Below are positions 4,449 through 52,767 of a stretch of DNA of 64,000 bases, piece after piece. The notes under the pieces are model-generated. The model saw only the letters and a list, made by a program, of their open reading frames with translations. It did not search any database and had not been told where the DNA came from. The stretch is taken from assembly GCF_037042905.1 (NCBI RefSeq), contig NC_087250.1, positions 27,592,001 through 27,656,000 of the forward strand. Reading direction: 5' to 3'. A program made the translations under genes and the position numbers. The DNA comes from Lytechinus pictus (Eukaryota). How positions within the stretch are numbered: the stretch's first letter is position 1; each line of letters begins with the position of its first letter.

Positions 4449-6600
4449 GCTCAATATTTGTTGTTTGATCTTATACAGCTAATTACAATTTTCTTCATAA
4501 AACTAGGAAAACTAATGTACATAATGAACATTTATATTATGATATAACATGTATAATGTGATGATTTTAGTATCTATTATTTCAAGTGTATATTGCAAGA
4601 TGAGTATAAACTATACTTTTTGTTTTTAAAATGATATATTTTCATTATACTTTGTTGTGAATTACTAACACTATTGAATAGAAAAAAAACAACGTTTGTT
4701 GATGTATAGATTTAAATCGAGACGAAATTATTCTTACCTACTTGAAAGCTGAAAATAGTCAAGAGAAAATAGTTCGGAAATATCTTTCTTTACTGTGAGT
4801 TAATGTATTTAGTAAATTTCGAGAATTTTTTGCCAATGCAATATACAGTGCGTCCCACAAAAAACGAAACCGAGATTTATCGATGATTTATCATAACTTA
4901 ATCACCAATAAAATAGACAAATGACCTACCATTGTAAAGCTTAGAATCTCTTCTTTCATCTGCAATTACTTAAATAATTTTTTATTCACGCATGAGTGAG
5001 TAAAAACAATTTGAAGAGGGGATACCAAAAAGTCATTTGGCGGGCTGTATCTGGATTTCAAAATAGAAAACCGCATTTTGAAAAAGTTCAATATCTGCTC
5101 TTTAAATTGATACCTCAATTACAGAAAATGGTCAAGAAATAACACAGTTCTGGTTATTTGAAATAAGGTTTGAATTTCAATAATTTCATAAAAGGAAGAG
5201 GTTTTACAGGCTAGCGTTCAAACTCACTCGACACTCCGTTTTAGTGACTATCAGCCATGCATTAAGTCTTTTGTTAACTGTGCACTGGCTTCTGTGGGAA
5301 ACCGGTGAAAACACGTTTATTTAATGAAATTATGGAAATTCAAGCATTGTTTCGAGGGAACAGAACCTTTTTACTTCTTGACAATTTTTTGTGATTAAGG
5401 TATCAAATAAAAGAGCAGATATTTAACTTTTTAGGCATGTGATTTTCTTTTTGAAATTCAGATACCCCCGCCAAATGAGTTTTTGGTATCCTTTCTTCAT
5501 ATTGTTTTTGCTCACTCATGCGTGAATGAGGAATAATCTAAGTAATATCAGATGAAAGAGGATATCCTAAGCTTTACATTGATAGGTCATTTGTCTATTG
5601 TATTTATGATTAAGTTATGATAAATCATCGCTAAATGTCGGTTTCGTTTTTTGTGGGACGCACTGCATAGTGATTTATAAATTACTGTTCTAATTATCAA
5701 CCGATCGGAAGAAATATCTAAGATTTTAAATTGATCAAAAATACATGGTGTATTTTGAAGTTATTATCATAGTTATGAAGAGGGTGTTTTTAATACACAA
5801 ATGATCACGTACTATTATAATCAAGAAATTTTGTCAGCATAAATGAAAATAAATGTCAAACAAAATACCGACTTTACATGCTCAATATATGATATTTAAT
5901 ATATACAGCTGATTATAATTCGCTTCATAAAACTTGGGAAACTATTGTACATAACATGCATAATGAACATTATTATGATATAATGTATATCATGATATCT
6001 ATTATTTTCAAGTGTATATTGAAGGATGAGTAGAAAGTATAAGTTTGCTTTTGATATAATATATTTTCATTATTTTTCATACTTTGTTGTGAATTACTAA
6101 CATTGTTGAATAGGAAAAAAAAGCCAATGCTTGTTGTTGTATAGACTTAAATCAAGACGAAATTAATCTTAAATACTTGAGAGCTGAAAATAGTCATGTG
6201 AAAATAGTTAGGAAATATCTTTCTTTACTGTGGGCTAATGTATTTAGTATATTTCGAGAAATGTTTGCCAATGCAATATATATATGATATAGTTGTATAA
6301 AAATTACTGATCAAAACACCAATTATCAACCGATCTAACTATCTCTTTACTATGGGTTATCTACTACATTTCGAGAAAAGCTTACCAATCCACAATCAGT
6401 TGTATGCACATTATTCATCTAAAAACCAAGTATCAACCGATCTGAATAAATGCTTAATATTTTTAAACTGATCGAAATCTTTGCATTTTTTTTTAGGTCA
6501 TTATCATGGTGATGGGGAGGGTGATTTTAATGCACAAAATTATCATGTGATGTTATAATCAAATAATTTTGTCAGCATAAACGAAATTAAATGTAAAAAA
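4449..6600 (+). repeat. Local tandem duplication (units ~4449-5879 and ~5880-6600)
   Basis: Shared TATACAGCT, ATACTTTGTTGTGAATTACTAACA and GGAAATATCTTTCTTTACTGTG segments. The first unit carries the MITE. Confidence 0.75.
4846..5665. mobile_element. Tc1/mariner-like MITE with long TIRs
   Basis: CAGTGCGTCCCACAAAAAACGAAACCGA...TCGGTTTCGTTTTTTGTGGGACGCACTG, TA on the left and CA on the right. The adjacent tandem copy (~6275) shows the empty site. Confidence 0.85.
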
Positions 6601-9181: not shown

Positions 9182-9835
9182 TGTAGCGAACCCGTCCGCT
9201 ACGGTTTTTAGTTATAATGCAGTAAACGTAGATGGCGCTATAGCAACGCACTGGTAAGGCAGCTCTCGGAGACTATAAATAGCGGAGTTTCGCGGTGATC
9301 TCGTCACTTCGACGCTGGCGGAGGTCGGAGTCGGACGAAGAACTCCCCGCGCTCCTCTCCAACTGGGCTGAATCAAGAAAAGGTTTGGAAATGAACATTG
9401 CTCGCTTAATTTCTACTATTGCAAATACAATTCTGGATAATTGGTGACGGTGTTAAAGGTGATAACATGTAAGAGATGCTGAATGTATAATTAAATTATG
9501 ACCGTTGTCATAAACCAAATGTAATCATCGTCTCCAACCTGTGTGATCTATGGAATCCGATTGACTTCTACAGTATAAGCCTTCCCATAGAGATTATACA
9601 GCTCCAATAGAAATCCCCTGTAATTCTATATTTCACCTGTTCACACTACCTCTCAACACTCCACCCCCATATATTTTGGGAAAACGGAACACGCCCGGGT
9701 CTCTACATAACGCCATACGGAAACCGCTCGCATTAAGGATGGCTAGCAATTCATCAACAGATGAAGGTGATAGAGGCAAGGGACAGGCCGGCCCCCGAGC
9801 ATCTAGGACCCGATCCAAGACGGAGGGCCGCCACA
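9182..9835 (+). repeat. 5' LTR (654 bp)
   Basis: TGTAGCG...CGCCACA. TATAAATA near 9274. Differs from the 3' LTR by about seven substitutions (by eye) plus indels. Confidence 0.95.
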
Positions 9836-9838
9836 CAA

Positions 9839-9856
9839 TGGTGTCAGGAGTGGGAT
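9839..9856 (+). promoter_or_regulatory. Primer binding site, tRNA-Leu(CAG)
   Basis: TGGTGTCAGGAGTGGGAT is the reverse complement of the metazoan tRNA-Leu(CAG) 3' end ATCCCACTCCTGACA-CCA; it lies 3 nt after the LTR. Confidence 0.9.
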
Positions 9857-11417
9857 GGAGAATGTGAGGACATCTGGAACAGATGGCAGCAATACTTCAG
9901 GGGATGAATCAGTTTCTACACATTCTGGAATCAAGTTATCTACCAGTAGGGGAAGAAGGCAGAAGACCGAGGCTCTGATGGAGATCGCACAGATGATGAA
10001 AAATCAAGCCAAGCTAGCTCAGGACGAGATGATGAAACAGCAAGCCAATGCCCAGGTTATGATGATGCAACAGGCTAAATCTATGCAAGCACAGATGGAA
10101 AAGCTGCTTCTATCATTCTCTAATGAGCAGAGTAAGCCTACCAGACGGATACGAAGAAAACTGAGTACTCGGGGAAGCACAGATAGGTCTACACAAACAG
10201 CATCATCAACTGAGGAGGAGGAAGTTCCATCCAATACTACGTGGCGGAATAGCAGAGGCAATCCTATTAATTCGCCAGTACAAAATGCTGCCAGGAAGAC
10301 GACATCACCAGCGGTGCAACCAACTGCTGTGCGAGACCCTCCAATTGATGACAGTAGGCTCCAGGCCATAATCCAGCAAGCATTGGAAGATACACTCCAA
10401 CATGGGCATACGTCAAAACCAAGGTCATCACAGGATGCCCAACAGAAGCCTAGGGGTACCCACTTTATCAAGCCAGACAAATATGATGGATGTTCATCAT
10501 GGACTGATTACAGCCAACATTTCGACTCATGCCGAGCAGTAAATGGCTGGGATGATGAAGAAGCGGGGAGGATCCTGGCATCATGCTTACGAGGTCAGGC
10601 ACTAAGGCTGCTACGGGAACAAAGGCATATGGTAGGCTTCAATGATCTGAAGAGAATGCTGGCCAATCGGTTCTCAGACAATAAACAGGCTGAGAATCAT
10701 TTACTAGAGCTGAAGCAAAGACAGAGACAGGAGGGCGAGACACTCAAGGAGCTTGCACAAAGCATCATAGAGCTCACGGCATTGGCCTACCCAGAGCTGG
10801 ATTTTGATGTCCGTGACAGATTGGCGAAGGGATACTTCATGGATGCCCTTGTGAAACCTAAGCTCAGAGAGGCAGTGTTCAACAACCAGTGTAAGACATT
10901 GGATGATATGGTACATGCTGCAGTGGTAGCTGAGGCCTTCCATCATTCTGAGGACCAGCGGAGCAGCAGGAAACCTAAGTACAGCAGGGCAATGACAAAG
11001 GAGAATGAGGAAGATGAATCAACCTCCGAACCAATTTCAGAAGTGAAAGCTATGGTAGCTACCTTGAAGGAAGAACTCTCCAAGCGTAATGCTGAGATGA
11101 CCACATTGAAGGAAGAATTGGTAGAGGCCATCAGGACTGCACTACAGCCACAACCTCAGACTGTGGTACCTAGTGACAAGCAACAGCAGAAGCAGAGAAA
11201 TTCAGACAAGTTTGATGGTAGCTGCTACTATTGTAGAAAGAAAGGCCACATGAAGAGGAAGTGCAAAAAGAGGATGAGAGACGAGGCTCAGATTCATCAA
11301 GCCGAGCAACAATATCAGAGCTCAACAAACGAAGTAAGGTCGCCCCAGGGGGGCATGGCGCGGCCGTGGAACCTGGAAGCACCAGCCCCTCAATACCAAA
11401 TGCCACACAGCCAATAG
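9855..11417 (+). CDS. gag: Gag (520 aa)
   Basis: Capsid-like KPDKYDG..W..Y...F......NGW motif and CCHC zinc knuckle CYYCRKKGHMKRKC; starts at the end of the PBS. Confidence 0.92.
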   Translation: MENVRTSGTDGSNTSGDESVSTHSGIKLSTSRGRRQKTEALMEIAQMMKNQAKLAQDEMMKQQANAQVMMMQQAKSMQAQMEKLLLSFSNEQSKPTRRIRRKLSTRGSTDRSTQTASSTEEEEVPSNTTWRNSRGNPINSPVQNAARKTTSPAVQPTAVRDPPIDDSRLQAIIQQALEDTLQHGHTSKPRSSQDAQQKPRGTHFIKPDKYDGCSSWTDYSQHFDSCRAVNGWDDEEAGRILASCLRGQALRLLREQRHMVGFNDLKRMLANRFSDNKQAENHLLELKQRQRQEGETLKELAQSIIELTALAYPELDFDVRDRLAKGYFMDALVKPKLREAVFNNQCKTLDDMVHAAVVAEAFHHSEDQRSSRKPKYSRAMTKENEEDESTSEPISEVKAMVATLKEELSKRNAEMTTLKEELVEAIRTALQPQPQTVVPSDKQQQKQRNSDKFDGSCYYCRKKGHMKRKCKKRMRDEAQIHQAEQQYQSSTNEVRSPQGGMARPWNLEAPAPQYQMPHSQ

Positions 11418-14400
11418 TTACAACCAGGTACAATGGAGAAATCAACAAAGGAATTCTGAAGGGCATGTATGTGTCAGTCACTATCGGTGGGACACAGCTG
11501 AGTTTTCTGGTAGACACAGGAGCAACAGATACATACATCTCCAAGTCAGGCTATAGGAAACTACAAGAGAAGCCTACAATTCAAACTACTACAGAGAAGG
11601 TTATGCTTGCAGATGGCTCACAACTAGAGGTGGATGGAAAGATCCACACAGAAGTGATTATAGGCCAGGGGAAGGCAAGTATCACCCTGATTGTCGCTGA
11701 TATCTGTAGCGATGGAGTCTTGGGCATGGATAATCTTCTACAGTTAGGAGCAAGGCTTAACTTGGAGACTGCTACAATGGAAACCAAGTGGGGTTCAGTT
11801 CAGTGTCGCCATGAAGACAACACTAGAACTTGCTTCCGCATCATAGCTACTGAGATGTACACCATACCGGCAGGCCGAGAAGGCATCATTACAGGAAAAG
11901 TACTGGATGGGGTTTCAGATGACGTTACAGGCATGGTCGAAGCATCAAATGATAGACGTCAACTTACACAGAAAGGCATCATCTTGGCCAGGACCCTCGT
12001 CAGAACTAGTAATGGAGCAGTCCCAGTTAGAGTATACAACCCTACAGGATCACAACGTGTGATAAAGAAGGGGACAGGGCTAGGATATTTGTCGGCAGTA
12101 TCAGAACCAGATATCCGAGCATCTCATCTTTCCAGTGAGGAGATTGATCTACCAGAGTATCTGACTGATTTGTACGAGCGGAGTATACAAGAGGTGCCAG
12201 AGCAGTACCATGCACCTATTGCTAAGCTTCTGACTACATACCAGGATGTCTTTTCCAAAGGAGACTATGACTTGGGGAAAACCAATCTGGTGAAACATAC
12301 AGTTGACACCGGACAGACCAGGCCAATCAAACAGAGGCCACGGAAACATCCGTTTGGACAGAGAGATGTAATCAGGAAGCATGTCAATGATCTTCTGGAC
12401 AGGGAACTCATCGAGCCTTCAGACAGTCCATGGGCAGCCAACATCGTCTTAGTTAAGAAGAAAGACGGCTCCCAGCGCTTCTGTGTTGATTACAGGCAAC
12501 TGAATAGTGTTACCATCAAGGATGAATATCCTCTCCCTCGTATCGACGAGACCCTTGATGCACTCTCTGGAGCCAAATGGTTTTCAACGTTGGACCTTGC
12601 TAGTGGGTACTGGCAGGTAGAGCTTGACTCGGATGCTAAGAGGAAGTCAGCTTTCCTCGCAGATGGGGGACTGTATGCCTGGAAGGTCATGCCTTTCGGC
12701 ATGTGCAACGCCCCAGCAACGTTTGAAAGACTCATGGACCAGGTATTGAGAGGACTACACTGGGAGACGCTATTGGTCTATTTGGATGACGTGATCGTGT
12801 TCGGGAAATCCATTGATGAGGAGATGGCGAGGCTGCAGCAGGTGTTTGAACGTCTAAGACAGACAGGGCTGAAGTTGAAGCCAAAGAAGTGCAACTTGTT
12901 CAAGACTTCTGTTTCATACCTCGGGCACGTCGTCTCTGCAGAAGGTATATCGACTGAGAAGGACAAAACAGAAACAATCAGGACATGGCCCAGACCCGAG
13001 TCAGTGAGGGAGGTCCGTGGATTCTTAGGCCTTGCATCTTACTATCGTCGCTTTGTTGAAGGCTTTGCCAGAATTGCTAGGCCTCTGCATCAACTGACAG
13101 AGAAAGGACGGAAGTTTGAGTGGAACCAGGACTGCCAAGAAGCTTTCGAGGAACTGAAGCACAGACTAGTCACGGCTCCAATACTGGTATACCCTACCGA
13201 GGAGGGAAGATTCATTCTGGACACAGACGCCAGCAATGATGGTATCGGCGGTGTAGTCTCCCAGATACAGAATGGCCAGGAACGGGTCATTGCCTATGGA
13301 AGCCGAGTCCTAAGCAAACCAGAAAGAAACTACTGTGTAACACGTAAGGAACTACTTGCTGTAGTAGTGTACCTCAAACATTACAAGCAGTATTTGTATG
13401 GTCGCCACGTCCAGGTGAGGACTGATCATGGAGCTCTGAGATGGCTGATGAATTTCCGGCAACCTGAAGGTCAGCTGGCAAGATGGCTGGAAGTCATATC
13501 AAGCTACGACATTGAGATTATACATAGGGCTGGAAGGATTCACAGCAATGCTGACGCTCTATCACGGAGACCATGCAGGCAGTGTAAGCGAGAAGGAGGC
13601 TGCATATACGGAGGAGACACTGGGAATATCAACGTCATCACGTTGAGGAATGACAACCTAGCTGACATCCAAGAGGCCCAGCAGGAAGATCCTTACATAA
13701 ATCCAGTCAGGAATGCACTGGTGGAAGGGAGGAAGCCATCCCGGGAAGAGGCGACGGCATATCCTTTTAAGGTCAAGGTTCTTCTGGATCACTGGGACCA
13801 GCTAGAGGTCAAAGATGGTGTTCTGTACAGAAGGTGGGAATCAGAAGATGGAAGAGATGTCAGGTGGCGTTATGTACTACCTAAAGTTCTGATACCGGAG
13901 GTGCTACAGGACCTGCACTCCTCTCCAATGGCAGGACATCTTGGTATGACGAAGACTCTACACAAGGTACAGGAACGTTTCTACTGGGTAGGAATGAAGG
14001 AAGAAGTCAGATCCTTCATTAGGCAATGTCCAGACTGCGCTCGCCGACAGAAGGCAGGACCAGGGAAAAGAGCTCCGCTACAGCAGAGGCAGAGTGGATA
14101 TCCGATGGAGAGGGTCGCCCTGGACATCATGGGACCATTGCCAGTTACTGATGACGGGAACAAGTACATTCTTGTGGTAGCTGACTATTATACAAAGTAT
14201 GTCGAGGCATATGCAATACCAGATGAAAGAGCTGTAACAGTGGCACGGAAGCTAGTGGACGAATTCATCTGCCGCTACGGAGGAGTTCCTAATGAGATAC
14301 ATAGTGACCAGGGCAGGAACTTCGAGTCCAACATCTTCCAAGAAGTGTGTCAACTACTGGGTGTCAGAAAGACAAGGACGACACCGTACAACCCAAAGAG

Positions 14401-15166
14401 TGATGGGATGGTTGAAAGGTTCAACCGTACGCTGATCAACATTCTTGCTACCCTATTGGATCCAGAGAAGCACCAGCGGGACTGGGACAGGTATATACCC
14501 TACGCCACAGCTGCATACAGAAGCTCCACGCACGACACAATCAAGGAGACTCCAAACATGATGATGTTTGGCCGAGAGGTTTCACTGCCTATCGATTTGC
14601 AGTTCTCCAAACAGGATGGAAGAGAGTGGACTGACTATGCTCAGCAGCTGAGGGAGAGAATGGAAGAGACATACCAGAGGGCCCAGCAACGTAAGGGTGT
14701 TGAATTGAGACGCCAGAAAAGGAACTATGATCGGAAATCAGATGGGAAACTCTATGAAGCTGGACAGTTCGTATGGCTCCGCAACAATGCCAGGAAGAAA
14801 GGAGTCAGCCCCAAATTGTCACCTAAATGGGAAGGTCCCTACCAGGTGGTTTCTAGACTTTCCGACGTGACCTATCGTATCCAGAGATCCCCCAGGAGCA
14901 AACTAAGAGTGGTACACTTCGACCGCCTGAAGCTCTACAACGGATATGATGTACCAGAGGCCTGGAGGACTCAGCCAGCCGACCTAACAGACAAGGTGAC
15001 TACCAATCGTGAACCAGATGTTGTGGATGATGGACAACCTACTCAGGCTTCTACTGAGACTACAGTGGAACCAGGAATTCCATTACCTGATGATTCTAGT
15101 GACCCAGACGTCAACCCTTCACGCTATCCTAGGAGGCGGAGAAGGCCTCCAGACTATTTATATTGA
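11261..15166 (+). CDS. pol: Pol polyprotein (protease, RT, RNase H, integrase) in the -1 frame relative to gag
   Basis: LVDTGA protease, MPFG and YLDD RT motifs, DTDAS / TDH RNase H, HHCC (H...GHLG...CPDC) and D,D,E integrase core, GPY motif. No internal stops. Confidence 0.97.
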   Translation: MQKEDERRGSDSSSRATISELNKRSKVAPGGHGAAVEPGSTSPSIPNATQPIVTTRYNGEINKGILKGMYVSVTIGGTQLSFLVDTGATDTYISKSGYRKLQEKPTIQTTTEKVMLADGSQLEVDGKIHTEVIIGQGKASITLIVADICSDGVLGMDNLLQLGARLNLETATMETKWGSVQCRHEDNTRTCFRIIATEMYTIPAGREGIITGKVLDGVSDDVTGMVEASNDRRQLTQKGIILARTLVRTSNGAVPVRVYNPTGSQRVIKKGTGLGYLSAVSEPDIRASHLSSEEIDLPEYLTDLYERSIQEVPEQYHAPIAKLLTTYQDVFSKGDYDLGKTNLVKHTVDTGQTRPIKQRPRKHPFGQRDVIRKHVNDLLDRELIEPSDSPWAANIVLVKKKDGSQRFCVDYRQLNSVTIKDEYPLPRIDETLDALSGAKWFSTLDLASGYWQVELDSDAKRKSAFLADGGLYAWKVMPFGMCNAPATFERLMDQVLRGLHWETLLVYLDDVIVFGKSIDEEMARLQQVFERLRQTGLKLKPKKCNLFKTSVSYLGHVVSAEGISTEKDKTETIRTWPRPESVREVRGFLGLASYYRRFVEGFARIARPLHQLTEKGRKFEWNQDCQEAFEELKHRLVTAPILVYPTEEGRFILDTDASNDGIGGVVSQIQNGQERVIAYGSRVLSKPERNYCVTRKELLAVVVYLKHYKQYLYGRHVQVRTDHGALRWLMNFRQPEGQLARWLEVISSYDIEIIHRAGRIHSNADALSRRPCRQCKREGGCIYGGDTGNINVITLRNDNLADIQEAQQEDPYINPVRNALVEGRKPSREEATAYPFKVKVLLDHWDQLEVKDGVLYRRWESEDGRDVRWRYVLPKVLIPEVLQDLHSSPMAGHLGMTKTLHKVQERFYWVGMKEEVRSFIRQCPDCARRQKAGPGKRAPLQQRQSGYPMERVALDIMGPLPVTDDGNKYILVVADYYTKYVEAYAIPDERAVTVARKLVDEFICRYGGVPNEIHSDQGRNFESNIFQEVCQLLGVRKTRTTPYNPKSDGMVERFNRTLINILATLLDPEKHQRDWDRYIPYATAAYRSSTHDTIKETPNMMMFGREVSLPIDLQFSKQDGREWTDYAQQLRERMEETYQRAQQRKGVELRRQKRNYDRKSDGKLYEAGQFVWLRNNARKKGVSPKLSPKWEGPYQVVSRLSDVTYRIQRSPRSKLRVVHFDRLKLYNGYDVPEAWRTQPADLTDKVTTNREPDVVDDGQPTQASTETTVEPGIPLPDDSSDPDVNPSRYPRRRRRPPDYLY

Positions 15167-15832
15167 ACACTCATAACATTCAATCTGCAGATAGATGTGG
15201 AACTGTATTCTAGCTGTTTCTAAAACTGACAAATTGTTAATATATATCGTTCTATGGATTTACTGCGTGGTCTAAAAGAAGACGCGAGGATTCTGACGGT
15301 TGAAGAATGAACTAATCAGATAGAAGCACTAATCCACACAAACTGTTGAACCAATGTGGAAAACAACCCAATCTATACTGGACTTGTCTATATATAAATG
15401 TTTCGCCCTATTTATGTCGTAGTGTAAGTCATTTATTTGTTTTGTGAAACACCACACCATTATCTTTTCGGATAATATTGTTCAAGGAGGTGTCCTCGAC
15501 TCACATATATTTATAAAACTAATTTTGCATAGAAGCACTCGCTGTAATGTTTATATTCAGAGTTAATGCCCACAGAGTGAACACGTTTCATATTGCTAAT
15601 GAGAATGATGATAATGTTGCTATCAATGAGAGCTTACAGAAATAAGTTATGGAAGCTGCAGAGAGATTGATTGTACATAGTATCCATATAAGGAGTGTAT
15701 ATAAGAGGACATAACTCTCAGTATGATTAATACAGCGATGCATATAATTCAATACATTTTGGTTGCTTTGTCAAATTGTTTGGAATCCCTCTGCTAATGT
15801 GAGGATAAAACAAATGTGAGGACACATTCCTT

Positions 15833-15843
15833 GAAGAGGGGGG
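15833..15843 (+). promoter_or_regulatory. Polypurine tract
   Basis: GAAGAGGGGGG ending 3 nt before the 3' LTR. Confidence 0.85.
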
Positions 15844-15846
15844 CTG

Positions 15847-16737
15847 TGTAGCGAACCCGTCCGCTACGGTTTTTAGTTATAATGCAGTAAACGTAGATGG
15901 CGCTATAGCATTTGGTGCGTTAGAATTCAATGATCGACTTACGCTACGCACTGCGTAAGGCAGCTCTCGGAGACTATAAATAGCGGAGTTTCGCGGTGAT
16001 CTCGTCACTCGTCACAACTGGGCGTTGTGGCGTGTGCCTGCAATCCAAGCTGTGTGGGGAAGTTACAAATTGATGCAGAGGTTCGAGGTTCGAGCCCTGG
16101 TCACGTCTTTCGGATGGTGACGTTAAAGGTCGGTCCCAGACGTAAATAATCATATCTGATTGATACACGTCTGACAAAAACTAAAATACACACACACGAT
16201 CTCGTCACTTCGACGCTGGCGGAGGTCGGAGTCGGACGAAGAACCCCCTGCGCTCCACTCCAACTGGGCTGAATCAAGAAAAGGTTTGGAAATGAACATT
16301 GCTCGCTTAATTTCTACTACTGCAAATACAATTCTGGATAATTGGTGACGGTGTTAAAGGTGATAACATGTAAGAGATGCTGAATGTATAATTAAATTAT
16401 GACCGTTGTCATAAACCAAATGTAATCATCGTCTCCAACCTGTGTGATCTATGGAATCCCTATTGACTTCTACAGTATAAGCCTTCCCATAGAGATTATA
16501 CAGCTCCAATAGAAATCCCCTGTAATTCTATATTTCACCTGTTCACACTACCTCTCAACACTCCACCCCCATATATTTTGGGAAAACGGAACACGCCCGG
16601 GTCTCTACATAACGCCATACGGAAACCGCTCGCATTAAGGATGGCTAGCAATTCATCAACAGATGAAGGTGATAGAGGCAAGGAACAGGCCGGCCCCCCA
16701 GCATCTAGGACCCGATCCAAGACGGAGGGCCGCCACA
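15847..16737 (+). repeat. 3' LTR (891 bp), carrying a 200-bp SINE insertion and a 35-bp segment absent from the 5' LTR
   Basis: Direct repeat of 9182-9835. The 237-bp length difference is accounted for as 200+35+1+1. Confidence 0.95.
16017..16197 (+). mobile_element. SINE with 7SL(Alu-domain)-like head and (CA)n tail, copy 1, inserted in the 3' LTR
   Basis: Absent from the 5' LTR. 12-bp TSD GATCTCGTCACT (15998-16009, 16198-16209). Near-identical to 29725-29901. Confidence 0.88.
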
Positions 16738-26298: not shown

Positions 26299-27924
26299 TG
26301 TATATGGGAGAAGAATGGTTAGTGAGGGAGGGTACTTCAGCACGAACAATGAGGTCCCTGAGATTCGGTGGGCGTCGGTATGCTAGAAGGGGAGTATCGG
26401 GAACGGCCTGTTGGAGACGATCAGAAGTGTGTAAAATGTGGTGGTTATCACAAAGGATTTTGCGGAGAGGGGGTAGATTGGGATGGAAGGTGGTCACAAG
26501 CGGTATTCTGTCGGTACCCAGGACCAAAATCCAATTGAAACCAGTTGGATTTCCAACTGGTTTCAATTGGTTTCAATTGGTTTCAACTGGTTTCAATTGG
26601 TTTTAACTGGAATTTAACAATTTCCAGTTGAAACCAATTGAAACCAGTTGGGCAACTGGAAATCCTAACTGGAACCAGTTGGGTATTACTGGAAATGACT
26701 TCCAATTGGAAATGATTTCTAACTGGAACCAGTTGAGTAACTGGAAATCCCAACTGGAACCAGTTGGGCAACTGGAAATCCTAACTGGAACCAGTTGGGC
26801 AACTGGAAATCCTAACTGGAACCAGTTGGGTAACTGGAAATGACTTCGAACTGGAAATGATTTCTATGTGGAACCAGTTGGGTAACTGGAAATCCTAACT
26901 GGAACCAGTTGGGTAACTGGAAATCCTAACTGGAACCAGTTGGGTAACTGGAAATGACTTCCAATTGGAAATGATTTCTAACTGGAACCAGTTGAGTAAC
27001 TGGAAATCCCAACTGGAACCAGTTGGGCAACTGGAAATCCTAACTGGAACCAGTTGGGTAACTGGAAATGACTTCCAACTGGAAATGATTTCTAACTGGA
27101 ACCAGTTGGGTAACTGGAAATCCTAACTTGAACCATGCAGTTGTGTAACTGGAAATCCTAACTGGTACCAATTGGGTAACTGGAGATGACTTCTAACTGG
27201 AAAGATGGGTAACTGGAAATGAATTCTAATCGGTACCAGTTGGGTAACTGGAAATAAAACTGGAACCAGTTGGGTAACTGGAAATGATTTCCAATTGGTT
27301 TCCAATTGGAAATTTTCCAGTTACCCAACTGGATCCAATTGAAACCAGTTAATTTGCATATTATCTGCCAGTGTGCACAGATTAATGTTTTATGAGATTC
27401 ATCATCATTAACAATGGATCTATTTAATTCTTTTCAATTTCCTGTGCCACACTTTTTAAAGATAAGTATTTAGAATACTTAGCAGTGAAAACCATGTTCA
27501 TAAATGTTATAGATTATAATTAAAACAGATTAAAGGATAATTAGTACACCACTAACTGTTACCAAATTACATCAAATAAAAATACATATATTTGAAGATC
27601 TTCCGCCAGTATGATTTACTGTTTAATTGTGCCACCACAAGTGACTTACCATACATGTATGCGATGACTCTGCCACGGCCAATAAATGTCTCAACACCTA
27701 CTTAAATCGTCTGTAGTTTTCCCTTTATTTACTGGCGTGGTGGCTTACGGTGTGATCAGAATCCCGCGGCTAACTTTCGCTACCAGGATCAAAGAATCCG
27801 GATTGCGGGAAATCTTGCTCGAAAACTTGGGGACAGGCGCTCACCAGGACTAAATTTGGTGTGATAGTTTGGGTAGGCATACAGAGTTGAGTATTTATAA
27901 AGCGTACGTAGTCCCATATATAGT

Positions 27925-29751
27925 ATGTACTGTACTGCAATGCGCGCCGCATCGACGAAGCGATGCACGGTCGTGGCGGGGCCCACCCGCGTCGGGCTCG
28001 CATCTATACAGAGATGTGTAGCCGTCGCTGAGGCACCTCAGCGTAGGTGTCCTCCTGCTGTAGAGCATGAGTCTATCGTGACTCGTAATAAATCTAAGAA
28101 TGACACCCCATTTTTCCCTGCCAGTGTTCGGGGAACCTCCGAACAGTTGACAGTGGAATTGCATAGTGGTTCTCCTTTGAATTTGATAAGTGAGTCTACT
28201 GCTGATTTCTTTGGCCTTGAAGTTGTAATCGATTCGTTTGGTTACAGTGACTATGTTGACCCCGAAGTGTCGTTTGCCTTGCCATCTGGCATTGTTGGCA
28301 TTACATCTTTTTCTCTTTTCCATGATGGATGTGAGTTGTATTATGATGGTTTCGTGGTTGAAGATGGTGTGGTGAACTTTGACGTGATGGCTGGGGCTCC
28401 CTTTATGGAGAAGAATGATGTTTCCATTCGACCTTCTAAACACCAAATCATGTTTGGGGACTACCATACTTTTTCTTACATGTCACCATCTGATCAATTC
28501 CCCCAATCTAGTCCCACTAGTATGAATGAATTAGATGAGCTAGATTGTGCAGTGGGTATGATATTGCAAGGATCTGAGAATGAGTGCAAACACACCAATC
28601 CTGGATTTGACAGTGAGTGTAAACACACACTCCCACTAAATGAATGTTCTCAAGTATACAGAGAGATCATGGATGTTGGGTGTAATGTTCGGTTGAATGA
28701 GACTGAAGCTGAGCATCCACACATTCACAAGTCCAATGACATTAATAACATACACAGTGAGGTCATTGATATTGAGTGTAGTGTAGAGGTGAATGAGACT
28801 GAAGCTGACCATCCACACATTCACAAGTCCATTGACAATCATAACATGCACAGTGAGATCGGATTGATGACCAGTGTGGAGACTGAAAGTACACGTATTA
28901 TGACGGAGTATAATGTTGGTAACACAGACTTGGGATTTGCGTTGCCACTACGTGGGTTGAAGATGGATGGTGGGATTCGTGAGACCTTGAGTGAAAGTGT
29001 TGAGAAAGTCACACAATCCGAAAGCTGTAAGCCTGCTGTGAGTACTGATAATAGCTGTGACCGTGCTAAGCCATGCATAAGCACAGTAGGTGAAGTTGGG
29101 ACACATTACAGTTGTCAAGTAAAACATGAACATGAAATTAGTTGGGACAGTGACCTATCGTGTGTAAAGGTTGTAGGTGAAATTAGGCTACATAACAACA
29201 ATCAGGTAAAGTACGAATATACACAATTTGATAGTGTTCCTGATACTGAGCTTAGCTCTGTTGTTCCCAACACTGAGCCTAGCTCTGGTGTTTCTGATAC
29301 TGAGCCTAGCTCTGGTGTTCCTGATACTGAGCTTAGCTCTGTTGTTCCTGATACTGAGCCTAGCTCTGGTGTTCCTGATACTGAGCCTAGCTTTGTTGTT
29401 CCTGATACTGAGCCTAGCTCTGGTGTTCCTGATACTGAGCCTGGCTCTGCATCTGGTGTTCCTGGTACTGAGCCTAGCTCTGGCATTCCTGATACTGAGC
29501 TTAGCTCTGTTCCTGATACTGAGCCTAGCTCTGGTGTTCCTGATACTGAGCCTAGCTCTGACATTCCTGATACTGAGCTTAGCTCTGTTGTTCCCGACAC
29601 TGAGCCTAGCTCTGGTGTTCTTGATACTGAGCCTAGCTCTGGTGTTCCCGGTACTGAGCATAGCTCTGGCATTCCCTGTAATGAGCCTAGCTTTGGCATT
29701 CCTGATACTGAGCCTAGCTCTAATACTGGGCGTTGTGGCGTGCGCCTGTAA
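27925..29751 (+). CDS. ORF of the non-autonomous LTR element: degenerate retropepsin-like domain followed by acidic PDTEPSSGV repeats; truncated inside the SINE
   Basis: LTVELHSGSPLNLISES (D>H at the D[ST]G position) and DVMAGAPFMEKNDVSIRPSKHQI resemble Gypsy proteases. Confidence 0.55.
   Translation: MYCTAMRAASTKRCTVVAGPTRVGLASIQRCVAVAEAPQRRCPPAVEHESIVTRNKSKNDTPFFPASVRGTSEQLTVELHSGSPLNLISESTADFFGLEVVIDSFGYSDYVDPEVSFALPSGIVGITSFSLFHDGCELYYDGFVVEDGVVNFDVMAGAPFMEKNDVSIRPSKHQIMFGDYHTFSYMSPSDQFPQSSPTSMNELDELDCAVGMILQGSENECKHTNPGFDSECKHTLPLNECSQVYREIMDVGCNVRLNETEAEHPHIHKSNDINNIHSEVIDIECSVEVNETEADHPHIHKSIDNHNMHSEIGLMTSVETESTRIMTEYNVGNTDLGFALPLRGLKMDGGIRETLSESVEKVTQSESCKPAVSTDNSCDRAKPCISTVGEVGTHYSCQVKHEHEISWDSDLSCVKVVGEIRLHNNNQVKYEYTQFDSVPDTELSSVVPNTEPSSGVSDTEPSSGVPDTELSSVVPDTEPSSGVPDTEPSFVVPDTEPSSGVPDTEPGSASGVPGTEPSSGIPDTELSSVPDTEPSSGVPDTEPSSDIPDTELSSVVPDTEPSSGVLDTEPSSGVPGTEHSSGIPCNEPSFGIPDTEPSSNTGRCGVRL
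29233..29721 (+). repeat. 27-bp minisatellite (CCTGATACTGAGCCTAGCTCTGGTGTT), ~18 copies
   Basis: Directly visible; stop-free in several frames on both strands. Confidence 0.92.
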
Positions 29752-29901
29752 TCCAAGCTATGCGGGGAAGTTACAAATTGATGCAGAGGTTCGAGCCCTG
29801 GTCACGTCTTTCGGATGGTGACGTTAAAGGTCGGTCCCAGACGTAAATAATCATATCTGATTGATACACGTCTGACAAAACTCAAATACACACACACACA
29901 C
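29725..29901 (+). mobile_element. SINE with 7SL(Alu-domain)-like head and (CA)n tail, copy 2
   Basis: ACTGGGCGTTGTGGCGTGCGCCTGTAATCCAAGCTA head, GGTTCGAGCC B-box-like motif, (CA)n tail. Interrupts a minisatellite/ORF. No clear TSD. Confidence 0.85.
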
Positions 29902-30199
29902 TTCCCATAGTGTCTTGGTAATGAGCCTTACGTTAGCTCTCTTGTGTCTTGTAATGAACATAGCTCTAGTGGTAGTATGCTCTCCTTTCATTGCTACTCA
30001 TGTTTCGGAAGCTGAACCTAGCCTTGCTGTTGCAGGTTATGTACACAATGCTGACTTCACTTCAATAGAGCATTGCGCCGGCATTCGATCGCTTTCGCAT
30101 GACCTTTATTCTCCTTTCGCTACAGTGGAGAACCGTATTCGCGAAATCCACGATCTTCTTGAAAACCGAACCGTTGACTACCTGTCGGACGTAGAGTAC

Positions 30200-30590
30200 A
30201 TCGATGAGAGTACCCGTAGTACAGATCGTTGTTATTTCGGTTTCGTTCTTTGTACACGTGATCATGATATCGATGAGAGTACCCGTAGTACAGATCGTTG
30301 TCATTTCGGTTTCGTTCTTTGTACACGTGATCATGATATGCCCAGGCATGTACGTGGTGTCCGCAACACAGATCGTTTTCGGCATTTCGGCTTTGTTCGT
30401 TATACACGTGATCATGATATGCCCAGGCATGTTTGTAGTGTCCGCAACACAGATCGTTTTCGGCATTTCGGCTTCGTTCGTTGTACACGTGATCGTGATA
30501 TGCCCAGGCATGTTTGTGGTGTCCGCAAAACAGATCGTTTTCGTCATTTCGGCTTTGTTTGTTGTACACGTGATATGCCCAGGCATGACG
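30200..30590 (+). repeat. 69/81-bp tandem repeat within ORF 29915-31357
   Basis: ACAGATCGTT...TACACGTGATCATGATAT unit, about five copies. Confidence 0.85.
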
Positions 30591-33500
30591 CTTACCTTGA
30601 TATTGTGCTGTGTTTCTCTCTCACCGACAGTTACCATTTCTTTACAAGTATCTTACCTTGTGAGGTATTCTATGTATGCACAGCTCACATGCCTTCCGTA
30701 GCTATTACCATCTGGTCACCCTACATGGTCTGTATAGCTTATAGTGCAAAAGACAAGAATTTGGCACCCTACCTTAGTCCCGTGATGTCTACCCTCCTTT
30801 GGAATCCTCCTGATCGATTGATATTGCCTGTTGTCCATCATGCTACTGATCCTGATGTGATTTTGCTGCTATCTTACCCGTGTGACTACATCAGTTCTGG
30901 TAACCAGTCCTCTGCATATTATGTCATGACTAGTCTTCCCCCCTCACGGCTCTTTGAGGACAGAAAAGCGGCCCACAGTAGCACACCCTTACTCCATGTT
31001 CATGGAAGTTCGTCACGCGCCGTCTCTCCGGTGGCCGACCCAGTCCGTACACCTGCTGTTGTTGATCAGCCCTTGAGGATCCAACCCCTCGTTGGATCTT
31101 GGCCTAGATGCGTCGAGACCATTGAACACCAGGATTGGCTTCTCTGGACTTGTGGACCTCGCCCACCATCGCCCTTTTCTGATCGAACTCGCATGATCCT
31201 CAATTTCCATGATGGACCTCGCATGATTCCCTACCCCCCTGATGGAACTCACTTTTCTGGTCCCAGTGTGGTTGTCATGCGACCTTGGCCTTCTGGACTC
31301 TTTCAGGCTCATACAGTGATGTCATCACACGCTACAACAGTTTCTGCTGCTTTCTGATAACTGCCCTGTGTGCTTAGAGTTTCTGCGCGCTTCGGCATTC
31401 ACGGTGGCCCACACCCCTCCCCCCCCCCCCCATGGTCATATCTGCAGTAGTGACATTTATGTTTAAAGAGTGTATACATTTTACCACTGTTGTTGTATCA
31501 CGTTTTTTTTATTATTCATTTCCTATATTGTTACTCATGTTTTGCTTTGTGATACAGGTATATGATTTGGCTATTTTTGTACTTCCTTAATATACGCCCC
31601 TTTTTTATCTACAGATTTATACAAGTATTGGGTTGCAGTTGGTTTTAAATTTTTATGGTTTTACCAGAACACAAATATAAATGTGTTACTACACAGATTG
31701 GGTGCGGAACATTGGTTACGTTTTGTATTAATGCATGCTATAGTTATTGAGTAATATTTTTGATGTCATGTGTGCATACATTTCGGCCGTTTCAGATTGT
31801 TAGTAGTGTACTGACCAAATTTGGAAACATGCCTTATTTTCTGAGTTTTTTATGTTCAGTAGTAACTACACATGACTTATCTCATTTGTTCACATTTTTT
31901 AAAAATTTGTTTATATGGTAGTGATTAAAGAGTGTTCTTGTGGTATTATTTATACCTTTGCTTTGTTGGATATAAGTGGCATGTAGGCATGCTGTTGTAC
32001 ATTATGTACATAATTTTACCGGACAGTGAATTTTATTTTATCGTTCTAAACATGTTGCATTTTACTTGTAAAGTAAGCAAGGGTAATTGGGATTAGTGCA
32101 TCGTTGTAATATATTTTGAGGTTTGCTATCAACGACTCGTATAGTGGAATTGTTACATGTTCTTCATCCACGCTATACGTATATGGCTATTATTTGAGGT
32201 CTGTTATTAATGACTTGTATAGTGGAATGCTTTATGTCCTTCATACATGCTTTATTTATATATTGCCTATTATTGGAGGTGTGGATTTGATCCTTATCAT
32301 TTGCACATTCATATTTAGATTGAAATAATTATGGCCAGTTTTGGTGTACCAATTGTTTAGTTGTTACCTTACGTATGTTACCCTGTTACTTAAATATTTT
32401 TGTTGGTGTTCATGCGTTTTGAATAGTATTTCATACAGTCAAATTGAATATGCTTGGTTTTGGATCTGTTAAAGAAAAAGAGAGAAATGAAAGAAACATA
32501 ATCACGCCAGTATGATTTACTGTTTAATTGTGCCACCACAAGTGGCTTACCATACATGTATGCGATGACTCTGCCACGGCCAATAAATGTCTCAACACCT
32601 ACTTAAATCGTCTGTACTTTTCCCTTTATTTACTGGCGTTCCATATAATTTATACATATGAAAGTCTGTATTTTATCAATGCCCTTTACATTGGTATTAA
32701 TTGACATATAATACTGCTTCTGTGTTGGCATATGAGCAATAGTTAGTGCAAATGCTAATTAATTTGTAACTAATTAAGTTAATTCATTCCAATTAGTTCC
32801 AATTGGATCCAGTTGGAAACCAATTGGTTTCAACTGGTTCCAGTTGAAACCAGTTGCCTCCAATTGGTTTCAACTGGAACCAATTGAAACCAGTTGCCTC
32901 CAATTGGATTCAATTGGTTTTAATAGGGAAATTGGAACAACTGGAACCAATTGACACCAATTGCCAACTGATTCCAGTTGCCCAATTGGTTTTAACTGGA
33001 ACCAATTGGAAACTGGTTTTCAATTGGAACCAGTTGGTTTTAACTGGAACCAATTGGCAACTGGTTTTCAATTGGAACCAGTTGTTCCAATTTCCCTATT
33101 GAAACCAGTTGGCCAACTGGTTTCAATTGGTTTTGCCCTAATTGGTTTTAACTGGATTTTGGTCCTGGGTAGTCTCTAGCTTGTCACTTTTAGGTTTGAG
33201 AACTTCAGATCTGGGGAGAGAACGAACTTTGTTAATTGCCAGTTGGACTGCCCTGGCCCCGTGGCCCCTGGCACAGAGATGTTTCTGCAAATTCCTGGCA
33301 TGGAAGGAAAAATCAGGGTCCTCGGAGCAGATACGGCGAAGTCTGAGGGCTTGACTGTAAGCGATGCCGGTTTTGCAGTAACGGGGGTGGCAGCTGGATG
33401 AGTGGAGGTACTGGTGGGTATCTGTGGGTTTAGAGTATAGGGTAGTGGTGATAGCTGTTAGACTTTTTCTGGACTGTTACATCAAGGAAGTGGGTTTCCT

Positions 33501-36000: not shown

Positions 36001-37685
36001 GGCTTGTTATATTCACTCGCGTTCGTAATCACTCGCGTCGCGTTGGTAATCACACGCGTTTTTTATTTTTGGCGATTTTTTTTTCATTTCGGTGCGATTT
36101 TTTTTTCTAACGGTGTCTTCAATGGGACAAACACGCTGGGAAAATAAAATGAAATTGAAATTCGAGTTTCGTTTTAAGCCGGCAAGTGCCTTAAATAAGA
36201 TGTACTCGACTACTGTTTTTACATAACAAACAAGCAAATCTGCCATGTGGCTCAACTAACTTAGAATAGATCCGGACTTCTACTGTGTCTTATACGATGA
36301 CTCCGAGTCGGAACTTGCCATATCTGCCACATCGATATTACATCGTATCATTCCCATATGCGGACATGCCTGCATGCAATGGCCCCAAGGCGGCCGGACC
36401 CGGCCGCGGTCGGACACGACTTGCATCGGTAGCATGGAACAAGCTAACGTGAGTCGAGCTGAGTTAGATCCCACGTTACATATGAGACGCCGATTGTACC
36501 AATATTATATAGAACAATTATTTGTTACATAATCATTATTCATTAAATAATAACTATTATTTATATATAATTTACATTCTATTTGTAAATAATTACTATT
36601 ATATAAAATAACATTTCTAATTATTTATATATAATTCCAAATAATACTTCATTATTTGTAAATAATAATAGTTCGACATTCTATTATTTATAAATAATGA
36701 TTATTTATAAATAATGGGATATTCAAACAAAAATGTTGTTTATAAATAATAAAACACGATGAATTTTCATTATTTATAAATAATGGGAAACTCAACAAAT
36801 TATTTATAAATAAAGAAATGTGCACTGGCATTGTTAATGGATAATTATCATTTACAAATAATAGAAAACTCGACAAACTTATTTATAAATAATAAAAAAA
36901 CGAATTGCAATTATTCATAAATAATGAAGTATGCAGTGTCATTATTTATAAATAATGAAACACAAAAATTATTATTTATAGATAATGAAAAACAAATAAT
37001 CATTATTTATAAATATTGGAAAGTCGAACTATTATTATTTACAAGTAATGAAGTATTACTTGGAATTATATATAAATAATTAGAAATGTTATTTTATATA
37101 ATAGTAATTATTTACAAATAGAATGTAAATTATATATAAATAATAGTTATTATTTAATGAATAATGATTATATAACAAATAATTGTTCTATATAATATTG
37201 GTACAATCGGCGCCTCATATATAACGTGGGATCTAACTCAGCTCGACTCACGTTAGCTTGCTCCATGCTACCGATGCACGTCGTGTCCGACCGCGGCCGG
37301 GTCCGGCCGCCTTGGGGCCATTGCCGGGGCCATTGCATGCAGGCATGTCCGCATATGGGAATGATACGATGTAGTATCGATGTGGCAGGTATGGCAAGTT
37401 CCGACTCGGAGTCCTCGTATAAGACACAGTAGAAGTCCGGATCTATTCTAAGTTAGTTGAGCCACATGGCTGATTTGCTTGTTTGTTATGTTAAAACAGT
37501 AGTCGAGTACATTTTACTTTAAGGCACTTAATTGCCGGCTTAAAACGAAACTCGAATTTCAATTTCATTTTATTTTCCCTGCATGTCTGTCCCATTGAAG
37601 ACACCGTTAAAAAAAAAAAATCGCCAAAAATTCAAAACGCGAGTGATTACGAACCCGCACGCGACGCGAGTGATTATAAACTGCC
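36001..37685. mobile_element. Foldback element with ~650-bp inverted arms and AT-rich satellite core
   Basis: Arms 36001-~36690 and ~37000-37685 are reverse complements. GGC...GCC ends and 8-bp TSD CTTGCAAT (35993-36000, 37686-37693). Confidence 0.85.
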
Positions 37686-50647: not shown

Positions 50648-51323
50648 TTAAAAGAGAGTTCATGTGCTGGAAATATTTCGACCCCGGTTATGGTTTGTAA
50701 ATGTGTTAGGAATATTAATTAAATCCCAGTCAGGTGGATGCCATATTTTATACAAGTGTTGGAAATATCAGTCTTTAATGCACAGGAAGTTCTCTTTTGT
50801 AACAGGAATATTTTACTTCATATGCTTTATGCACTCATCTATTCTTAACATTTTTATGAGTGCTTTCCTAGTTACGATAGGGTATAATAGGCAGTTGATT
50901 TTAGTTTATCAGGGAGAACCACCTAAAGCTAATACAGACCATAGATCTCCGTTTAGGCAGTAAAGGTTATCTGAGGGAGTCCACGTCGGTGACGAGACTA
51001 CGAGCCCAGCTGCCGCCCGGTTCTCCATCGACATGCTATTCATGTCAATATCCGGGGCTCGAGCTCATCCGTAATCGTCGAAGTCCTATCTGAGGGGCAT
51101 CGCCATCTGCGGAGCCCAGGGGACCGACTACCGGGGGCCAAGTGGAGCAACGCCAGACGGACAATGATTCTTCTTTATTCTGCCAAAGTTAAGTTATATT
51201 TATTTGTGATCATTTCCATATCCATATATATCATGAATGTTTATTTTCTGAAACAAACCGAAATCAGAGAAATGGTGGATGTATCATCATTAACCTTCAA
51301 ACTATTAAACTTTAAACTATTAA

Positions 51324-51926
51324 AGGACAAGTCCACCCCAACAAAATCTTGATTTGAATAAAAAGAGAAAAATCAGACAAGCACAATGCTGAAAATTTCA
51401 TCCAAATCGGATGTAAAATAAGAAAGTTATGACATTTCAAAGTTCCGCTTATTTTTAACAAAATAGTTATATGAACGAGCCAGTTGCATCCAAATGAGAG
51501 AGTCGATGACATCACTTACTCACTATTTCTTTTGTATTTCATTATATTAAATATGAAATATTTTTATTTTCTCATCATTGTCATGTGAAATGAAGTTTCA
51601 TTCCTCCCTGAACACTTGGAATACCATTATTTTAATATTTTGTGCTTCAGGCAAGGAGGTCCTAATTGTCAAATTCGTAAAAAATGATATATTGTAAAAT
51701 TCAAACAATAAAAAACAAAAGAAATAGTGAGTGAGTGACGTCATCGACTCTCTCATTTGGATGTAACTGGCTCGTTCATATAAATATTTTGTTAAAAATA
51801 AGCAGAACTTTGAAATGTCATAACTTTCTTATTTTACAACCGATTTTGATGAAATTTTCAGCATTGTGCTTGTCTGATCTTTCTCTATTTATTCAAATCA
51901 AATTTTTTTTGAGGTGGACTTGACCT
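51324..51926. mobile_element. TTAA-type (Kolobok-like) MITE
   Basis: TTAA|AGGACAAGTCCACC...GGTGGACTTGACCT|TTAA with ~200-bp inverted arms. Confidence 0.85.
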
Positions 51927-52767
51927 TTAAACAGTTAAAATGACTTATCTGTTTGGATGGTCTTGAAGACTGCCTAATAAAGGTGGGGGGGGGGGGTTAT
52001 GATGCATACACCCCCATGGTGGACGTATCATACCCCCCCCCCCTCCCCCTCGCTACATATCAGCATCAAAATTTGGCACACCTCTTAGTTCACATTTCTC
52101 ACGTGAAGTAAAAGACTTTACATAGGCCTATATTGTAAATAAAAATAAACATCAAAAGTTTGTTTCATCCAAATTGAAACAATTGCACATATTTTTTGTT
52201 TGAATATCAGCAACTAATTCACTTGTTTGACTTGTTCAAATCAATAATTGTCTTCTTTTCAGTGTCACCAAGTCAACATTAATTCTTGATTGAATCGTGT
52301 AATGCAGGCGAGACCTGTCAGGGGGCGTTCCTCTTATTAATTATTTGTACAAAAATGTTTGCTTTTTCAGATCACAGCAGTTCATTCGATGGCGCTTTGA
52401 TTTATCTGTCAGTATTAGCTTTTGATCTTTAATATGATTCATAGCTAATGTAAACATGGTAAAACAGAGATAACTCATTTCAAGAGGCCTTCACATAATG
52501 AAGAGGTTGGACATACATACACTATGGAATAGCTCTTTTGTTGATTCATCGCTATCATAAATTGAATCTACACCAGGGGGCCGTTTCATAAAGCTGTTTG
52601 TAAGTTAAGAGCGACGTTAAGAACAACTGGTGATCCTTTCTTACGCGCTAAACCATCTCCAATGAATATACCATTTACCACAATAAAGGATCACCAGTCG
52701 TAGCAAATAAGATATCTTGAGAGGGGTGGGGCAAAATGAGTTAAAAGTGACAATCCTTTCTCTTTAA

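Follow-up and report, generated by a model that had tools for sequence, protein, structure and literature searches.

The window, the whole 64,000-nucleotide stretch of DNA that was analysed, contains two copies of a short interspersed element (SINE), each lying within a longer repeat of LTR type (Table 1). The copies differ at 5 of 173 aligned bases, by one 7-base and one 1-base indel and in tail length, and both end in (AC)n tails; the two near-identical elements of about 180 bp with (CA)n-type tails listed in a preliminary description of this DNA are thus present. That description had guessed at an echinoderm-like host. The genome is that of a sea urchin, and a match of 236.7 bits to bindin, a sea urchin sperm protein, was obtained.

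Table 1. Features of the two SINE copies and their insertion sites (window coordinates)
Feature	Position	Strand	Remarks
SINE copy, short subfamily, 177 bp	29725..29901	+	Within long ORF of LTR-type repeat; 4-base target deletion, no target site duplication
7SL-derived head: 5′ domain (helices 3 and 4, U-turn, closing helix) and A-box region	29725..29771	+	Unambiguous to base 36, probable to base 47
3′ half of tRNA-type head, B box 29789-29797, 3′ end like host tRNA-His	29772..29806	+	
Body: short Deu/Nin-like motif	29801..29837	+	By-eye comparison with published alignments
3′ stem-loop, 7-bp and 6-bp stems, likely LINE recognition signal	29838..29874	+	z −4.5; role predicted
(AC)n tail	29888..29901	+	
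SINE copy, long subfamily, 181 bp	16017..16197	+	Within 3′ LTR of Gypsy-type element
Left copy, 12-bp target duplication	15998..16009	+	7 extra bases between it and SINE
Right copy, 12-bp target duplication	16198..16209	+	
Empty site in 5′ LTR	9297..9308	+	Sister of SINE-bearing 3′ LTR

Retrotransposition of the 16017 copy had been proposed from its flanks, and both the 12-bp target site duplication (TSD) and the empty site in the sister 5′ LTR were seen; part of the target is also repeated in 7 further bases at the 5′ junction. The element that holds this copy (window 9182-16737) is a young LTR retrotransposon of Gypsy type whose pol frame, open over 1,309 codons, covers protease, RT, RNase H and integrase; its LTRs differ at 7 of 654 bases (1.1%), and it has a 4-bp target duplication. 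At the 29725 insertion, all seven sister copies of the host repeat that were examined are empty, and in them a reading frame of 885-985 codons or more runs uninterrupted through the site. Comparison with these sisters shows that 4 bases of the target were lost on insertion, that the 5′ microhomology amounts to 3 bases and that no duplication was made. The repeat in question (window 27604-32639) is an LTR-type element with direct repeats of at least 135 bp that are 99% alike, one long ORF lacking a Pfam match, a 27-bp array and other internal repeats; nine genome copies at 97-100% were found, and the element is likely non-autonomous.

The 811.7 Mb assembly was searched for further members of the family. 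A DNA search with the window copy gave 1,622 candidates, and 27 of the best 40 scored, the window copy included, were 100% identical over 174-177 bases. An exact 20-base word from the head matched the genome 902 times, at least seven of these matches being 7SL genes, and an exact 17-base word from the body matched 1,139 times; the reversed control of each word matched nowhere. Ninety copies were sampled from the first 100 body-word matches, on contigs C1 and C2, ten being left out as already sampled or as tandem neighbours. The exact head word is present in 48 of the 90, from which the family is estimated at about 1,700 copies. Seventy of the sampled copies are full-length, and 20 are shortened at the 5′ end: five are without up to 8 bases, five are cut between bases 19 and 30, and ten start at or after the B box. 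Divergence of the full copies from their majority sequence has a median of 1.9%, with 60 of 70 within 5% and a maximum of 12.7%, in a sample that leans to young copies through its need for the exact body word. The SINE is 175-185 bp long; what chiefly separates its subfamilies is a change of 2 bases in loop 4, together with an indel of 7 bases that precedes the B box. Copies lie on all of contigs C1-C22, as located by the DNA search and the pattern scans, and sequencing runs from several studies of one organism contain the element. In three runs that are presumably RNA, 75-83% of the SINE words occur (rows with fewer than 5 words left out), although these runs consist of contigs only and cannot show a Pol III transcript. 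No match to the SINE was found in viral contigs.

A TSD of at least 6 bp flanks 13 of 61 copies, against 0.8% of shuffled flank pairs, and 34 of the 61 have three duplicated bases or fewer; nine of the 70 full copies were dropped from this count for want of a clear tail, and an earlier, non-random set gave 10 of 75. The family is a SINE: it is short and interspersed, has at least 100 copies and moves by retrotransposition, as seen from empty sites, TSDs, 5′ truncations and a repeat tail. Its description from the window as a young, multi-copy, retrotransposed family holds at genome scale, with empty sites at both window copies. The short, variable TSDs, unlike those of L1 and unlike the TSDs of roughly 17 bp made by an RTE-driven hagfish element, suggest a partner other than L1 or RTE. 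Independent insertions were also found at nearly one place in another repeat family (L007, L013, L017, L204 and L226; 5 of 147 tails at one site), and further near-coincident insertions with different junctions or subfamilies are L173/L004/L012, L174/L003, L044/L058, L111/L069 and L009/L118/L194. Such recurrent places suggest a target preference, often adjoining AC or C then T. Head-to-tail SINE dimers occur at L039, L009, L194 and L210, some of them copied to several contigs within larger repeats.

The 5′ end of the element had been attributed to 7SL RNA, and comparison with the host's own genes supports the attribution. The genome contains seven full-length 7SL genes; bases 1-30 of the SINE match their main type at 29 of 30 positions and gene L037 at all 30, and over bases 1-47 there are 40-42 identities to the host genes. 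All differences from the main type over these 47 bases lie in loop 4 or in one compensated closing-helix pair (C-G to U-A), and the U-A pair is common to the SINE and L037. Loop 4 is 1-3 bases longer in the SINE than in 7SL, and the older copies L038 and L238 are without its extra A and closer to 7SL. In a narrow Rfam scan the Metazoa_SRP model matched 29725-29771 at its positions 1-44 of 299 (29.6 bits, E 3.7e-6, under the gathering score of 70), and up to E 10 the scan listed neither a tRNA nor a 5S family. Matches to miRNA and snoRNA families in the Rfam scans stayed under their cut-offs and were disregarded. Homology to 7SL is certain as far as base 36 and probable from there to base 47. 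Since the D loop of a tRNA-type head is also similar to bases 37-47, the 7SL/tRNA junction could instead lie at base 36. The 7SL-derived part probably ends at base 47, the end of the 5′ SRP9/14-binding domain. The 7SL paralogue L037 (G000:C12:4895279-4895577), which carries the SINE's U-A closing-helix pair and has no downstream B box, is possibly of the donor type, or was possibly partly converted by the SINE.

The sequence features of an SRP9/14-binding 5′ Alu domain are present in the head. Helix 3 (GGGCG/CGCCT) and the UGU turn, both pointed out in the preliminary description, are kept in the 29725 copy; among the 70 full copies, the pairs of helix 3 are kept in 65-69 and those of helix 4 in 65-68. 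The triad G4-U23-G24 is found in 58 of 70, and the loop-loop partners GGC and GCU in 61 and 62; triad and partners are described as SRP9/14-binding features in the accessible part of PMC12265939. In folding predictions for the full-length RNA, made with a model that includes neither protein nor pseudoknot, the probability of helix 3 is 0.00-0.85 over eight copies (0.15 for the 29725 copy) versus 0.98-1.0 in 7SL genes, and helix 4 is weak (0.09-0.18) in the shorter-loop subfamily. Taken by itself, the head is no more stable than shuffled sequence (z 0.18), and the intact stems may only reflect the youth of the family. Searches for the host proteins gave one weak exon match for SRP14 and none for SRP9, in a genome whose many introns make such searches uninformative.

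Downstream of the head the element is of tRNA type. The B-box consensus is present in 64 of 70 copies and the A-box region is as in host 7SL, so that the boxes of an internal Pol III promoter appear to be in place. Host tRNA-His genes and further tRNA-type SINEs were retrieved with a pattern made from the SINE B box, and over 20 bases copy L040 agrees at every position with the 3′ end of host tRNA-His (0 of 1,000 shuffles as good). The 41-base stretch from base 50 to base 90 aligns with two tRNA-type SINE heads, again with 0 of 1,000 shuffles as good for each; when the B box is excluded, the match to one of them, L082, persists more weakly (15 of 1,000). Nothing within the first 270 bases of the host 7SL genes matches a B box, and a 7SL fragment alone would therefore carry none. 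Two other tRNA-type SINE families of the host (L082, L090, L091 and L074, L077, L083, L087) also have heads with tRNA-His-like 3′ ends.

The start of the body carries a motif, presumably of Deu/Nin type, of which only about 35 bases resemble Deu-type bodies by eye, the Deu/Nin domain being 70-330 bp. The same motif was recognized by eye in BivaMD-SINE1 and a hagfish Deu-domain SINE, in the portions of the published alignments at hand. The 3′ stem-loop is more stable than all of 200 shuffles, and its 13 pairs are kept in 64-70 of the 70 copies. Tail length in 62 copies has a median of 10 bases (range 5-28), and the SINE contains no T4 terminator.

A scan of metagenome contigs returned one match, L303 (226-372), a single record. 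It agrees with the family at 81 of 83 body-and-tail bases (98%) plus a short duplication, both substitutions lying outside the stems, and it ends in (CAAC)n. The 5′ part of L303 bears no likeness to 7SL and contains A-box-like and B-box-like words; ARAGORN and Rfam called no tRNA in it, and we read it as a putative tRNA-type end. Its homology to the SINE starts at base 48, and in the old copy L238 the first 10 bases after the head are common to L303. A different 5′ end on the same body and tail, with homology from base 48 onward, points to a head swap. Because the SINE retains the 3′ half of a tRNA head, the tRNA head would most simply have come first, the 7SL 5′ end being swapped in later. 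A search of the host genome with the 5′ part of L303 found nothing, and no tRNA-headed parent was present among the 90 body-anchored copies or among the 30 of 34 variant-body matches examined. L303 may represent either a close relative or a horizontal transfer.

The explanation that best covers the whole, to which we give a probability of roughly two in three, combines a 7SL-for-tRNA head swap, a hybrid promoter, predicted targeting to ribosomes through SRP9/14 and mobilization by a LINE through the 3′ stem-loop. By template switch or recombination, a SINE with a tRNA head would have exchanged its A box, its D arm and some of its anticodon arm for a 7SL 5′ end. The 10-base word with which one other host tRNA-type SINE family starts, and which is common to the 7SL 5′ end, possibly aided such a swap. 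The resulting promoter would take its A box from 7SL and its B box from the tRNA part, the latter being needed because host 7SL has no B-box match in its 5′ part. The 47-base domain would fold like the human SA46 domain and bring the RNA to ribosomes making LINE protein; recruitment of SRP9/14, already suggested in the preliminary description, is thus predicted from the features of the head. The LINE would recognize the 3′ stem-loop and prime on the (AC)n tail. The likeliest partner, by analogy, is of the CR1/L2 group, since published urchin SINEs pair with CR1/L2 (PMC3747384 Table 1). No partner LINE with the same tail was found on the 3′ sides of 70 RT-adjacent loci (best E 0.06, nothing at an element end), these being the loci compared with the tail from the 150 scored of 12,239 candidates in a Pfam RVT_1 search. 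When the tail was sought in the absence of the body, in three pattern scans, nothing emerged beyond SINE copies that were truncated or mutated and chance matches. A recurring match on C8 proved to be a truncated SINE copy inside a tandem repeat.

The same origin could have left the 7SL piece with a narrower role, as a promoter part (A box) or 5′ stabilizer only, SRP9/14 binding being absent or incidental as in 5S/tRNA hybrid heads. The unstable predicted fold in the full RNA and the lengthening of loop 4 by 1-3 bases speak for this. Given what is known of stringent LINEs, a SINE with a LINE-type 3′ stem-loop may also not need ribosome targeting. Heads that join 5S to a partial tRNA are known, moreover, from the available text of PMC4824008. 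Against it, the borrowed piece stops exactly where the 5′ domain stops, well past the A box, and the helices, triad and loop-loop partners have survived while loop 4 took several changes. On this evidence we hold the narrower role to be rather unlikely, although it deserves serious weight beside SRP9/14 targeting.

Far less credit is due to the view that the element is a true Alu-like monomer, in which 7SL lost its S domain and the 3′ strand and B box drifted to tRNA-like sequence. A whole-window Rfam scan did stretch the SRP model over 29725-29811 (positions 1-299, 29.5 bits), and gapped 7SL alignments can be extended to about base 97, but the narrow scan matched model positions 1-44 only. 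Neither the S domain nor the 3′ strand of 7SL was found in the SINE: bases 50-90 are at chance level against both regions, with 466 of 1,000 shuffles as good against 7SL 44-110 and 838 of 1,000 against the 7SL 3′ end, but 0 of 1,000 against tRNA-His and the two tRNA-type SINE heads. This stretch is tRNA-like, not 7SL-like, which largely refutes the monomer. More improbable still are human Alu contamination, 7SL retrocopies or a chance likeness of a tRNA-type head to 7SL, for the last of which the start word shared by the other tRNA-type family might be cited. The head follows the host's own 7SL, to the point of identity with L037 over 30 bases; copies sit in host repeats with empty sister sites and were seen on every contig from C1 to C22; junction and body are uniform over the 70 full copies, unlike those of retrocopies; and runs of several studies of one organism hold the element. 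Together these observations refute all three.

The family stands apart from the known 7SL SINEs in its design. Alu, B1, Tu and the shrew-mole Urop likewise begin their RNA with the 7SL 5′ domain, its U-turn and loop-loop partners included, but as described in the consulted sections of PMC13023118 they are 7SL with a central deletion of about 183 bases, carry poly(A) and use L1, whereas the urchin SINE has no 7SL 3′ strand and no poly(A). SINE1-1_EBu of hagfish is a young 7SL-headed family of about 2,400 copies that arose as a chimera with an older tRNA SINE (Kojima 2020, PMC7245038, in the excerpt available). The two resemble each other in an independent 7SL head acquired by chimera with an older tRNA SINE, which is our reading for the urchin, in youth, in a simple-repeat tail and in a non-L1 partner, suggested here for the urchin SINE. 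The hagfish element, on the same excerpt, has the 5′ 96 bases plus the 3′ end of 7SL, hence the full Alu domain with 7SL's own boxes, RTE-derived parts and TSDs of about 17 bp; the urchin SINE, in an invertebrate host, has only 47 bases of 7SL, a B box of tRNA type, a motif resembling Deu, an (AC)n tail and TSDs that are mostly short. In extent, the borrowed piece equals the 46-base 5′ domain (SA46/AY46) that binds SRP9/14 and suffices for retrotransposition (Moldovan 2025, PMC12199147, as far as the accessible text goes), and whose evolutionary failure is there attributed to a missing B box. SA46 (PMC12199147) is a laboratory construct with an outside promoter, poly(A) and L1, in contrast to the urchin SINE, a natural element with a tRNA-type B box.

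Among DeuSINEs, 5S rRNA plus partial-tRNA heads offer a parallel, a Pol III RNA 5′ end on the remains of a tRNA head with a Deu-type body, for which a template switch has been proposed (PMC4824008 and PMC4758252, in the parts seen); they differ in their 5S rather than 7SL donor, and the urchin SINE has only about 35 bases of Deu-like body. The sea urchin families SINE2-x_SP and SURF1 have Deu, Meta or CORE bodies and CR1/L2 partners, and all are listed with tRNA heads (PMC3747384, including its Table 1, and PMC4824008, as excerpted); by these descriptions they differ from the 7SL-headed SINE.

By its head the family belongs with SINE1 in the Repbase sense (5′ part from 7SL RNA), and its clear homology of 47 bases falls short of the SINEBase SINE1 threshold, which asks for 60 or more bases that are at least 60% identical to 7SL (abridged text of PMC3531059). 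It lacks the 7SL 3′ part, the poly(A) and the long L1-type TSDs of an Alu-type monomer, 34 of 61 copies having three duplicated bases or fewer. Judged by its sequence it is SINE1-like by its head and not an Alu-type monomer. Of the earlier term Alu-like, the derivation of the head from host 7SL stands; the comparison goes no further than a 47-base 5′ domain, given the tRNA-type B box, the (AC)n tail and the lack of long TSDs at most copies. The companion proposal of an independent Alu-like origin in an echinoderm holds for an independent 7SL head outside the lineages in the literature, and not for a full Alu domain. In the text available of PMC13023118, PMC10886601, PMC5786205 and PMC7245038, no 7SL SINE is reported outside Euarchontoglires, a shrew mole and hagfish, and all of those reported keep the whole Alu domain (PMC13023118, 2026). 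Our literature search found no invertebrate 7SL SINE; Repbase, Dfam, SINEBase and subscription journals lay outside it, and a catalogue entry may exist.

The sequences describe a genuine SINE family with a 7SL head, one that arose independently in a sea urchin and is built unlike those known: the 5′ domain only, joined to a tRNA-type B box. We see an even chance that it is the first 7SL SINE of an invertebrate, a natural, minimal 46-base SRP9/14-binding domain on a tRNA-type SINE, and a fourth invention, by which SRP9/14 targeting pays for a retroposon that uses neither L1 nor poly(A). The family retains only the piece that was found sufficient in cells (2025) and was thought unable to spread without a B box. 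It offers a natural test of whether what a SINE gains from 7SL is SRP9/14 binding rather than a promoter, in a host whose embryos are easy to inject, and as a young family with identical copies it is a source of insertion markers.

Several further observations were made in the same genome. In six of the seven host 7SL genes (L031-L036, on C1 and C10) a consensus B box follows the gene end at a distance of 23-47 bases, just past the terminator; the arrangement resembles a downstream-B-box promoter, and our literature search found no such report for 7SL. About 33 bases upstream of each 7SL gene in the C10 tandem array, on the same strand, lies an older SINE copy (L031 1290-1467, L035 1294-1467, L036 1315-1467), and the 7SL genes on C1 are empty at the flank where those on C10 carry the SINE. 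The window also holds a duplicated stretch (154-1479 and 54549-55870, 92-96% alike) with long ORFs, the second with a B-box zinc finger match, and long inverted repeats of MITE or foldback type at 36098-37619, 51311-51939 and 4839-5672. At least 27 tRNA-His genes are arrayed in tandem, one every 162 bp or so (L093-L102, G000:C11:6686800-6691500), and in some of them the anticodon is changed to GCG.
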